From: Octopus vulgaris
Lineage: Eukaryota
Direction: 5' to 3'
Assembly (NCBI GenBank): GCA_951406725.2
Contig: OX597827.1
Span: 50,840,001 to 50,904,000, forward strand
Length of the DNA: 64,000 nt
The translations under genes were made by a program, and so were the position numbers. Shown one piece after another: positions 3,146 through 53,760 of the stretch; position 1 is the stretch's first letter, and each line of letters opens with the position of its first letter. The notes beneath the pieces were generated by a model, which did not search any database, had not been told where the DNA came from, and worked only from the letters and a program-made list of their open reading frames with translations.

Positions 3146-3794
3146 GGACGTCGAGGGTATTCAGGCATCTCTAAAAACAAAGAATAACATTCTATATGCT
3201 ATAGATTTTATTGTTGATCCAAGGCTGGATCAAAGGCTCGGCATGCCGTCGCTGGTTTTACCTTTGTTGATTGAAGGCCTGCACGTCCACACCGGCCATC
3301 TGTGAGTTGCGGTTCTACCGGCATGTAGGTGAAATTTTAATGCAGAACGCAAAAAACTGATACCAGGAGGCATTCAAAGCCCCAAAAATTTCACCACACC
3401 ATCTATTTCAACTTGTACTTTATTTTATCGATCCCGAAAATTACCCTGGTGAGTGAGTTTACAATCAGAGCGCAAATAATCGAAATTAATACCGCAAGGT
3501 ATTCTGTCCAATCTCGTAACGATCCTATCAAATCGAGGTTTTTGCGTGCTGTATGTATGCATGTACAGGGGCAGAGAGAGGGAAAGCATATATGTAGGAA
3601 CATAGGAATTGATCAAACATACTTTTGGACTATACACATAAGCACACATTACACACGCGCACACACACGGCACTCAAGAACAAACTATAAGCACACTACA
3701 TCGTTTAACCGAAACAGTTGTATACACACACAGACACACACACACCATCCGATGAGTTGGACGAGTTTTACGCGTCCACGAAACTTAAACATGT

Positions 3795-4023
3795 GGAGCT
3801 GAGCTGGCAGAAACGTTAGCACCTCGGGCGAAATGCGTAGTCGTATTTCGTCTGCCGTTAGGTTCTGAGTTCAAATTCCGCCGAGGTCCACTCTGCCTTT
3901 CATCCTTTCGGGGTCGATAAATTAAGTACCAGTTCATTGGGGTCGATGTAATCGACTTAATCCGTTTGTCTGTCCTTGTTTGTCCCCTCTGTGTTTAGCC
4001 CACTGTGGGCAATAAAGAAATAA
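3795..4023 (+). mobile_element. tRNA-derived SINE family A (Nin/Deu-like core)
   Basis: A-box-like gagctggcagaaacgttagc, B-box-like gagttcaaattcc, core gcctttcatcctttcggggtcgataaattaagtacc; several copies in the window. Confidence 0.85.
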
Positions 4024-14501: not shown

Positions 14502-15178
14502 AATACATACATAAACACACATATATATGCAGGCATATATATATAATATACACACATATACACAAAAATGAGATAAACTAAATTTTAAATCAACCAAGTA
14601 TGCATATTAAAATAAAATATATGTATGGTTTCGATATTCTGTTCTTTTTACTTTCCTTTGATCAAAATTGTTTCTAGGATATAAACACGTTCAAAAAATA
14701 CGTGTTCCCATCGTCAACAGAACCGTTACAATACACTGACGTAAAGCAAAACTGGCTATTTTAAACGAAGTCGTAAAGAAATTTAAGTGGAACACCCGTC
14801 TAGTGTTATATACTCTACAAGAAACTTTCCACCAATTTCGGTATAAAATCTTCAACCATATCAATTCGACCCATATCAAAGTTTTCATCAAACACATCGA
14901 AAATGTATTTCAATTTGAAGTCCACGAAAAAACAGGTAAAGTCTAGAATGATAATATAATATAATATACAATATTAATGATATATATATAATATACAATA
15001 TAAAGAGGACAGATTAATCGAAATATGCATACACCACCAATTTTTCTACACTCTTAGTTCTACATACGGATTAGCAGACAGGGATTGTAATTCAGACTGC
15101 CAATACATTCTTCATATTTCTGTTAATATACCTTCACGACTCAGCGACATTTATTCGCTAGAAACATATTATAAAGGT

Positions 15179-15550
15179 ACTTGTACTTGTACTTGTGGCG
15201 ACATTCACCCTGGACGGGTTGAGTCGGCTTCTTCTACTCACGGAAGAAGTTTCGTGGGAATATGTGGATTTCACAAGCGGTTCCCAACAATCCCGCATGT
15301 GGAGACATCCTGTTTGCCGCAGATTGTCCACAGACGCAGGGACAGAACGACCGAGGAGCCGCTGGTTGCCGAAGCAGACACTCCGAAGATTTTCACCAGT
15401 CTGCCGGCTTGTGGCCCTAATACCACTCGGTGTCAGACCAATCCGCCTTGGGTGGCCCTACCAGGAACCGAAGTTCCCGGCGGCATAGCTCTGACACTAC
15501 CCGTTGCCAGCGTCCCCACCACGGGGAGGAGGGGATAGACTTTGGGGACG
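15179..15550 (-). mobile_element. Complete non-autonomous RTE-derived short retroposon
   Basis: 14-bp TSD catattataaaggt at 15165-15178 and 15551-15564; (ACAAGT)3 tail; RTE 5'UTR-like motif gagctatgcc...ggtagggccaccca; no tRNA head, no coding remnant recognised. Confidence 0.85.
15497..15549 (-). ncRNA. Candidate minimal HDV-like ribozyme at the element's 5' end
   Basis: Minus strand: P1 GUCCCCA/UGGGGAC, J1/2 aagu, P2 CUAUCC/GGGUAG, P3/L3 cc-uccuccccgu-gg, short linker gcuggcaac containing a candidate catalytic C. Confidence 0.6.
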
Positions 15551-16016
15551 CATATTATAAAGGTGCTAACATTATTCCAATTTAAATTTCCACTATGATA
15601 ATATGAAGGTGCACATGTTTAAATCTAATGCCATATGCTAACCTCAACTGCACGCACACACCCCACTGGCCTCTCCAAACGTAACTATGAATGGTATGCA
15701 TTTAACTTTTCCTCTTTCCCACCAAGTCACTCTATTCTCCACGAAAGCAATGGAAGTTATCTGCTAACTTATTCTTCACAGAGAAGGAGTCCTTAGAGAA
15801 TTAGCAGGTGATGTTCGACTTTGAGTAGGGGTGGGGCATAATAAGTAACCGGGCTAAAATGAGTAATTTCTGATTTTTTCGCTATTTCTTGTTTTCCCGC
15901 TAAATCATTTTAATCAGTTTTAAATCATTACATTGCAAGTATAGCATCGTCATTTTGCATTGTCTCACCATCTTTAGGAGTAAAAATTTGTAAGCATTGT
16001 TATTGCTGTGGAGGTT

Positions 16017-34295: not shown

Positions 34296-35669
34296 ACTAT
34301 AACAACCTAGATGGGGATACAAGCCTGAATTTATTAGAATATAATAATTACTTAAGTACATTGGATAATTGTAGTGAGAGGGGTAATCTATGATGTGTCT
34401 GTTTATACAGCTGCTTTTATGAAGAGCTTTATTAAATCGGATACACCGATTTGCACAAATGATACATTCTTGGTGGCTAGTTTTATTACCAAATTACTGC
34501 CATGTTAGTAGTGTTCCTTTTGTTATAACATTCACAATTAATTTATTGATTGAAGCCAACACTGCATGTGAAAATTAAATTCAACCATATACCCTGGACT
34601 GTCGTTAACGATTGTTTTTTATACAGTCATATCGTAGATAGGAAAAATTTTCTTAGAAACTAGTTCTATAAATTATTACACTCTAGCTTTACACTCTGGC
34701 GCGGAATAAGTCGAGAGACGAACCGCGCCAAATGCCAACCAATCAGAGCAGTGGACACAACAGAGTTAAATTAGCCAAAGATGGCTCTAATCTCAAACGA
34801 GATCATTCTTATTGTGTCTCTCAAAGAGTGGGGATATCAATATCGCTACACCACCATCATCTTAACGTCGTCAACATCATCTCTACGTACACAACTCAAC
34901 AAGCAACTCGCCCTAGTTCCAATACTTCACTGTTCGTAAATTACTTCACCATGTATCAACTGCGAATATACAACCTGCGAGAACTCCTGTACCAAGTGAC
35001 CCAGGGTACCGCATTACAACTACAACTTCGTACGACATGTCCCGCAACCGGTTCAGTATCTTGGCCGCTACTTCTTAATACAGTATTTCAATTACCGTGT
35101 GCAACTGACTACGAGCTGGTATTTCTCATTCTTGTGTCTATGAATATTCGTCTAACTTCTCGGTATAGACTCTTTCACTGTCTCCTTCATTGCTATTCAT
35201 ACATCCATGACTATGCACACATACACTTTGTTCTCATGACGGCCTGTCTATTATTCTGTCTATTATTCTGTATACATGACGCACTCACAGACACACATGT
35301 TAACATATCAATAAATTTTCTCTTAACTATTCTACTCGATTGTGTCTCCCTTTTCTCTCTGGCACATAAATGTATTATTCATTTTCTTCTTTATTATATC
35401 GACCGTGTGATGTGCAAATGAGACTCATTCTCGTTACCTCTCATCGCCCGGTCCTTACAAACTATTTAGATATTGAAGTCATTATAATCCTCACGCAGAA
35501 TCAGTTTGACATTGTGATATAAGGTTGGGACCCATAATTACAAGCACTGTCTGTCAATTGAACTGCTCAAAATTTCCAGCGATTTAGTTTCATTTAGACT
35601 TCAGTCTACCCAAGACTATGATACAAAACAGTACACTCAGATACTACACAGTGGGAGCGAGTAAGGAGC

Positions 35670-36270
35670 CTCATGACTGCAAAGCGAAGTTCTTACAACT
35701 GAAGGCTTCCTTAAGAGATGCTTGCATCATCTCTCCTGACACATGGGAGGGCATAGCTATTGATCGTAGCAGGTGGAGAAGGATTGTGCACGAGGGGACA
35801 GCTACTTTGGAGAAATCTCGAGTTGCGCATGAGAAAGTGAGGAGGGATGTCAGGAAGGGCATCGCTGTTACACTTCCAGATGGGAAGGGTCTTCCTATGA
35901 TACTGACATGCAGTGTCTGTGCAAGACCCTGCCTCAGTAAAGCTAGACTCAAGTGTCATCTTCGTAGTCATAAAGCGAGACAAATGAGTAACAACCTGGC
36001 AACTGGTGGTGGTGCTACACGCTATACTAATCATATCTGTCAAGCATGTGGAAGAGTGTAATTCGGCAGGAGTACTTAAACGACATGCAAAGGTACATGA
36101 AGCCCAGTTACAACTACAACCGGTGAATACCGGTAAAGGTTTTAGCTGCCAATTCTGTACAAGACATTGTAGATCTTTAGCTGGGCTAAAAAGTCACATT
36201 CGATCACAGCACCAATAACAGTTAAGCTTCGTGCAATGGCCATACTCGATAACGAGGCAGCCATCATCAT
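35670..36270 (+). mobile_element. RTE LINE 3' end with three C2H2-like zinc fingers
   Basis: LKASL...WEGIAIDRSRWRRIVHEG; CSVC..LKCHLRSH, CQAC..LKRHAKVH (2-nt frameshift), CQFC..GLKSHIRSQH; 3' hairpin region and (CAT)n tail. Confidence 0.82.
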
Positions 36271-52533: not shown

Positions 52534-53044
52534 CTTTTTTTTTCTTCTTTCAAATTTGCTTCCATTTCTTGCCGAGTGTCTTCCCGACTCCTAGGGCAAA
52601 GAAACTCATAGTATACATTGGTAGGCTATTAAACCAAACTCAGTAGTTCGTTCATTTTTTTTTTTTTTTTAAGGTTAAATTAAAATACATGAGCAGCAAC
52701 AGTTCTCACATCGACAATGCTCTTCTCAATACGTGTGATGTACCAGTTAAGACAATCTTTTGCACTTCTTGCAGGGATGGTAAGCCAGGGATCATTCTCA
52801 TATAATTTTCGGTTCCCTTCTTGATCATTCCTAGTGCTCCTACGATCACTGGTATTGTAACCGCCTTGAGATGACACATTTTCTCAATTTCAATGAGTAG
52901 GTCTTTATATTTTCTGAGCTTGTCAAACTCTTTCGCTGAGATATTATGATCACAGGGGATGCTCATGTCGATCAATAAGCAAACTTTATTGTTTTGGTCT
53001 TTCACAACAATATCTGGTTTATTGGCCTTGATAGTTCGGTCTGT
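52534..53044 (-). mobile_element. 5'-truncated R4/Dong-clade non-LTR element (PD..D endonuclease) inserted in (TAA)n
   Basis: TDRTIKANKPDIVVKD...LLIDMSIP...KYKDL...IPVIVGALG...VQKIVLTGTSHVLRRALSM; A-rich tail; TAA repeats on both sides. Confidence 0.9.
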
Positions 53045-53045
53045 A

Positions 53046-53760
<715 letters not shown>

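Follow-up and report, generated by a model that had tools for sequence, protein, structure and literature searches.

Within the window (the whole 64,000-nt stretch of Octopus vulgaris DNA analyzed here), a GC-rich insert at 15179–15550, read on the minus strand, is flanked by perfect 14-bp direct repeats (15165–15178 and 15551–15564), which a preliminary description of the stretch had rightly interpreted as a target-site duplication (TSD). Comparison with the family consensus and with a related LINE resolves the insert into the parts below, those of the ribozyme domain being placed by a predicted fold.

15551–15564: TSD 5′ of the element, in which 15551 is the final minus-strand base and doubles as G1 of the family
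15165–15178: TSD on the 3′ side, a direct repeat
15179–15551, minus strand: whole bipartite non-autonomous retroposon copy (consensus comparison)
15399–15551, minus strand: predicted HDV-like ribozyme domain (consensus 1–157), whose final strand (P2 3′) is deleted here
15544–15551, minus strand: P1 5′ strand, 8 nt from G1, with predicted cleavage just 5′ of 15551
15531–15534, minus strand: P2 5′ strand, four C (fold model)
15518–15530, minus strand: P3 (2 bp and U·U) and a 7-nt L3 whose first base is U and whose sixth is G (fold model)
15508–15517, minus strand: P1 3′ strand (15517–15510) and P1.1 3′ strand (15509–15508) (fold model)
15405–15503, minus strand: long branched P4 domain (z about −3), including hairpins 15479–15462 (cUUCGg) and 15426–15411
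15399–15404, minus strand: predicted J4/2; 15403, consensus C149, is the candidate catalytic base (48/48 copies have C)
15398–15399, minus strand: site of the 7-nt deletion, at which the predicted P2 3′ strand is missing (consensus comparison)
15239–15398, minus strand: remaining RTE-type 5′UTR, to the junction at LINE reference ~461 (LINE homology)
15197–15238, minus strand: LINE 3′ tip, comprising the last codons EEADSTRPG with stop and the terminal stem-loop (LINE homology)
15179–15196, minus strand: tail of three ACAAGT units (sequence)

The copy differs from the family consensus by 10 substitutions and one 7-nt deletion (consensus about 153–160), and is hence not the complete element it had been taken for. 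The ACAAGT tail and the stem-loop at the element's terminus are present as originally claimed, and the cUUCGg-capped stem corresponds to hairpin 15462–15479. Cleavage had been predicted 1 nt from the TSD; the family 5′ end is instead G1 at 15551, with which the duplication ends and from which 26 of 50 distinct copies align, and the predicted cleavage site is better moved outward by one base. The claimed absence of Pol III A and B boxes holds, in that ARAGORN finds no tRNA and a scan with box motifs finds no B box at ≤1 mismatch and a single A-box-like site with 2 mismatches, at consensus 104; no tRNA-derived head with A and B boxes was found.

The insert belongs to a family of many dispersed copies in a microsatellite-rich genome of 2.8 Gb (about 30 large contigs). 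A family search of this genome returned 1657 candidates, 40 of which were scored, and an internal 20-mer has 416 exact genome matches (control, 0). The 30 top copies lie 1.7–5.0% from the family consensus; the 20-mer matches, taken with a non-CpG divergence of 2.3%, suggest a copy number between several hundred and roughly one thousand. Family members contain no ORF, end in a microsatellite tail, and occupy widespread insertion sites with duplications of 7–18 bp. Our set of 50 copies combines 30 from the first search with 20 new ones from a 3′-end search (ten duplicate loci were dropped); TSDs were detected in 28 of these, and the 5′ end lies no more than 9 nt from G1 in 40. None of the 50 shares upstream DNA, save for the family's own head repeats (see below) and unrelated repeats, so the proposed 5′ limit stands. 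Copies chosen by their 3′ end alone begin within 8 nt of the family 5′ end in 21 of 30 cases, and contig ends in two other sequencing runs pile up at G1 (42 and 41) and at G3 (18 and 17). The base preceding G1 is T in 20 of 28 copies, which would fit a base added at run-off. About 8 Mb of one contig (C6:120–128.3 Mb) hold 14 of the first 100 listed 20-mer matches.

The earlier claim of an RTE derivation is supported: the element consists of ~320 nt of 5′UTR joined to the 3′ tip of an RTE-type LINE in the same genome. A chance match in locus L050 led to this abundant LINE, and walking in the 5′ direction led to 3.5-kb copies with endonuclease (EN) and reverse transcriptase (RT) frames (there is an RVT_1 match; the endonuclease match is weak). 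The LINE 5′UTR (loci L150–L152 and L132) is 75–82% alike to element consensus 10–313, and the 3′ tip about 80% alike to consensus 328–374 (47 nt), with a common stem-loop and similar last codons; relatives of the LINE encode a single ORF of ~1030 aa with the C-terminus GSTHPG or GSTRPG, again like the last codons of the element. By its single EN–RT ORF of ~1030 aa, its length of 3.5 kb and its very short, repeat-bearing 3′ end (all features of the RTE clade), rather than by a tree, the partner LINE appears to be RTE-type. Its copies lie 1.2–5.8% from their own consensus, and LINE copies and element family are of similar age. A strict pattern search of the genome for a LINE bearing the exact tail of the element gave 0 matches in another context; the partner is therefore a relative and not a proven parent. 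The RTE sharing both ends that the preliminary description had envisaged was thus found as a related LINE and not as a near-identical parent, and the direct parent may be extinct or may have been missed.

Other observations concern the partner LINE and further LINE-like sequences. A second 5′ type of the partner (L150, oriented positions 3600–3800; L159, L173, L180, L184) has ~200 extra bases replacing the P1 5′ strand and J1/2; it shows a perfect 3-bp P3, no matching P2 and no Rfam match, and could contain a promoter or another ribozyme. Three loci (L157, L169 and L170) have one and the same foreign sequence upstream of the LINE 5′UTR piece and fused to it; this sequence looks like the 3′ end of some other retroelement in inverted orientation. 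RTE-like EN–RT pieces are also encoded on 39 contigs of prokaryote genomes (L290–L328), most likely animal DNA binned into those assemblies. Elsewhere in the window, 35588–36061 on the plus strand (continuing to ~36270) is a 3′ fragment from a different RTE-like LINE that is very abundant (8655 candidates) and has a zinc-finger-like C-terminus; this family was considered as the partner and rejected, its 3′ end being different. An open frame at 52706–53461 on the minus strand is interrupted by an ATT repeat, and its C-terminal part resembles, judged by a motif, the endonuclease end of an RLE-type LINE.

The head of the element had been described as HDV-like, a claim that is supported in the form of a predicted fold of ~157 nt with a long P4, in which P2 and the motif C-N-R-A would lie about 105 nt downstream. 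In consensus numbering, P1 pairs 1–8 with 35–42, P2 pairs 18–21 with 154–157 and P1.1 pairs 26–27 with 43–44; L3 spans 25–31, and a branched P4 (49–147; z about −3.0 and −2.3 in the two families) is followed by a J4/2 with C149. P1 pairs in both element and LINE despite their differing sequences (8 bp from G1 versus 6/7), and P1.1 is C-G plus A-U in both consensuses. P1 of the LINE and of distant relatives starts with C; HDV-like P1 usually starts with G1. In the element, P3 comprises 2 bp and a U·U, and the first U and sixth G of the 7-nt L3 occupy the positions of U20·G25. The candidate catalytic C149, followed by N-R-A, is found at the same place in the LINE (for the role of C75 in HDV, see PMC13635239). 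In the alignment, 94.8% of cells in the P4 helices are paired, and two double-sided changes distinguish element from LINE, the comparison being limited to these two lineages. Among 20,000 shuffles, 121 and 48 reproduced the complete distal module (closure of P4, C-N-R-A and P2 strand) for the two families, and P2 with C-N-R-A alone is non-significant in element and LINE (267 and 222 of 2000; 4632 and 1760 of 20,000). Counting against the fold are the 8-bp P1 and the U·U in P3 of the element, the P2 of element and LINE, which has 4 bp and is invariant, without covariation, and a local hairpin (144–156) that competes in the minimum-energy fold. In R2 ribozymes, P1 is typically 6–7 bp and P2 at least 5 bp (PMC3774820). 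With a strict fold descriptor, 766 kb of loci yielded 17 cores, of which some 13 fall in the two known families; shuffled sequence (1.5 Mb) yielded 5, and the window none. Motif searching in metagenome and viral contigs gave no match, and a short-gap motif occurs at 4 places in the genome, which resemble deleted copies.

Public contigs yielded 117 loci of related LINEs, 32 5′ regions of which were examined, providing six complete heads (by motif and nhmmer). These have a 7-nt P1 (7/7 pairs in five, 6/7 in one), a 3-bp P3 and the same L3 pattern, then a P4 of 82–102 nt, C-N-R-A and a P2 of 6–10 bp, different in sequence in each; their fold was matched by 4 to 116 of 2000 shuffles. P1.1 in all six is G-C plus U·U, as reported for CPEB3 (PMC4836649), and the strict descriptor missed these heads because it demanded a Watson–Crick pair where the U·U stands. 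MAFFT matches hairpin 144–156 of the element to a hairpin that follows the ribozyme in the distant relatives and does not bring J4/2 into register; positional homology of P2 with them is therefore insecure.

In the window copy, the 7-nt deletion covers the predicted P2 3′ strand, one P1.1 pair is lost to an A-to-C change at 15525 and one pair closing P4 to a C-to-G change at 15408. The initial suspicion of an inactive copy is thereby reinforced: on the predicted fold, the copy is likely dead because the P2 3′ strand is deleted and P1.1 changed, either of which would suffice. Deletions within consensus 151–164 affect 7 of 50 copies and have differing ends, with a small hairpin over the P2 3′ strand; five of the seven come from the set chosen with this deleted copy as query, the other set having 2 in 20. 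We considered the P2-deleted form as an amplified subfamily and rejected this, the exact junction occurring only twice in the genome.

A far smaller ribozyme had originally been proposed for this head, ~55 nt long and without P4, in which the C of ggCaac (C46) acts as catalyst and a 6-bp P2 closes right after it; we regard this as very improbable. Its P1, P3 and L3 can form, and six P2 pairs are indeed possible in the window copy, but P2, J4/2 and the catalytic C appear to have been mis-assigned. The P2 needs T at 15537, a private change seen in 3 of 43 copies; in a 20-row alignment (MAFFT register) it pairs in 57.5% of cells, with the 15–54 pair present in 1 of 20 rows, and by hand 3/6 pairs are kept in the LINE. 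The description of L3 as C-rich likewise traces to an A-to-C change that is private, being seen in 2 of 44 copies. C46 is unchanged in 45/45 copies but absent from the partner LINE, and in our reading P4 begins with it, as in genomic HDV. No family-conserved J4/2 and P2 stand directly behind P1.1, and the P4 that was thought to be essentially missing fits, in its long form, the element, the LINE and the six distant relatives, with P2 82–102 nt downstream in 6/6 of the latter. Rfam gave no match at gathering score in the 64-kb window; a sub-threshold hit to HDV-F-prausnitzii (15490–15551; 18 bits, cut-off 44, E 0.93) skips P4 in its weak alignment and in this respect speaks for the short form, as do the R2 ribozymes known to lack P4 (PMC3774820) and the second contig-end peak at G3, although a G3 peak is expected from CpG decay at C2–G3 together with a T2 sub-lineage. 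We give scarcely any credence to an alternative distal P2 (consensus 15–19 with 249–253, after C-A-A-A), by which the window copy could still cut: this is the best-scoring P2 for the element (5 Watson–Crick pairs) and is intact in the window copy, yet an equal helix arises in 1694 of 2000 shuffles, the pairing has no counterpart in the LINE, P4 would stretch to 204 nt, and the P1.1 of the window copy is broken regardless.

A junction pattern for repeated heads matched 13 times, in 12 loci whose head repeats measure 187 nt; with L029, this amounts to at least 13 insertions (L187–L199, L029). These insertions have two to four repeats and different flanks, sometimes with duplications around the whole array, and retain the internal folds. 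They are confined to four contigs (C28, C29, C30 and C34) making up 3.05% of the genome, and the array variants follow the contigs, G41A being on C28 and C2T mostly on C29, C30 and C34; the internal heads are often changed at the C2–G41 pair. The junction is also present in sequencing run X17. Local spread or gene conversion may account for the clustering by contig. Uncut head repeats imply either sometimes incomplete cleavage or another mode of spread for these copies: the internal folds may have been carried uncut, or the arrays may have spread by gene conversion.

The family, with its target duplications, common 5′ end, homology at both ends to a 3.5-kb single-ORF EN–RT element and conserved pairing, is in our judgment probably a bipartite passenger of an RTE-type LINE, likely copied by the LINE enzyme and with a 5′ end likely cut by an HDV-like ribozyme of ~157 nt; the window copy would be an inactive member. 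Pol II would transcribe a source copy, starting outside it or in a repeated head; the HDV-like fold would then cut 5′ of G1, the LINE protein would bind the 3′ stem-loop and tail and prime at a nick, and copying would run off at G1, often adding one base. Rather unlikely, to our mind, is that the same structure and ancestry conceal a weak or dead relic of a ribozyme, kept for binding of the LINE protein, with the 5′ end set by an internal Pol II start and G1 possibly a copy of the cap. The atypical P1, P2 and P3, the competing hairpin and the head repeats left uncut in at least 13 insertions and a second organism lend themselves to such a relic, as do the treatment of bipartite LINEs as Pol II transcripts whose 5′ ends are responsible for transcription (Kojima, 2018; PMC5786205) and the head of L1Tc, which is promoter and ribozyme at once (PMC4758252). 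Set against a relic are the survival of P1 and P1.1 pairing through sequence change between element and LINE, the pairing with each other of G1 and C42 (both extra relative to the LINE), the conservation of C-N-R-A at HDV spacing, the frequent alteration of internal array heads at C2–G41 and the rarity of the exact P2-deleted form.

On the preferred account, the family of ribozyme-headed LINE passengers would likely have its origin in a join at a favored site ~300 nt into the 5′UTR, where many LINE insertions break. Among 30 loci found by the LINE 5′UTR, 24 end at reference 441–488, none at 489–582, and 6 run further; score ranking of these loci could create the lower bound of the zone, not the upper. 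The junction of the element itself, at ~461, can be compared with this zone. Eighteen of the 24 broken loci are joined head to head with an inverted 3′ end, 4 are joined in line and 2 are neither, and enclosing duplications were found in 13 of the 18 inverted and 2 of the 4 in-line cases. Loci chosen by the 3′ end show an inverted piece in 5 of 30, two of these ending at 485 and 459. The joins are distributed as follows.

L160, L162–L168, L171, L173, L176–L179, L181–L184, L117, L120: inverted LINE joins, mostly inside one target duplication
L161, L169, L172, L180: in-line LINE joins, a 5′UTR piece ending at reference 441–488 followed by the 3′ end

We tentatively propose, at slightly less than even confidence, that priming or template jumping on the LINE favors a site ~300 nt into its 5′UTR, such that single insertions would often unite the ribozyme-defined 5′UTR piece with the 3′ end, inverted or in line; the in-line joins would be ready-made bipartite elements and this family one that took off. 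An abundant short 5′UTR RNA would explain the break-point zone equally well.

The element belongs to a known kind, the bipartite non-autonomous RTE LINEs, and is ordinary for its kind. Kojima (2018; PMC5786205) described bipartite non-autonomous RTEs, noted predicted 5′ ribozymes in RTE and left the cause open; the ORF-less examples (RTE-N2_Lch, MAR4_MD, WALLSI3, RTESINE1/2 and Bov-A) appear to differ from ours in family and host, and that paper gives neither a ribozyme fold nor a break-point hot spot. HDV-like ribozymes heading RTE LINEs and SINEs (Ruminski 2011, as cited in PMC5786205, PMC6765202 and PMC3774820) have, like the present fold, a nested double pseudoknot and a P1 that starts at the 5′ junction, and release from co-transcripts has been proposed for them; the predicted octopus ribozyme differs in its 8-bp P1, 4-bp P2, U·U in P3 and C-G/A-U P1.1. 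R2 SIDEs and trypanosome RIME/NARTc (PMC6765202, PMC5786205) are likewise short, internally deleted, ribozyme-headed LINE passengers, but of other clades, and SIDEs are rDNA-specific whereas the octopus family inserts widely. Twin priming of L1 (PMC2837659) also places an inverted 5′ piece and a 3′ end within one target duplication; in the partner LINE, by contrast, the inverted piece often runs from the RNA 5′ end to a narrow 5′UTR zone, with loss of the ORF. Searches of the literature, mostly at the level of titles and so no proof of absence, found descriptions neither of an octopus RTE-SINE with a ribozyme nor of RTE twin priming or 5′UTR inversion.

RTE-based gene-writing templates use both UTRs (PMC13708176), and such tools are concerned because inversions primed in the 5′UTR would drop the payload. 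The corrected fold would offer a precise, testable ribozyme prediction that comes with natural dead variants. The LINE break-point pattern bears on why only few LINE clades make bipartite passengers; if the proposed site is real, it would provide a mechanism, left open by Kojima (2018; PMC5786205), by which RTE-type LINEs so often spawn bipartite derivatives.
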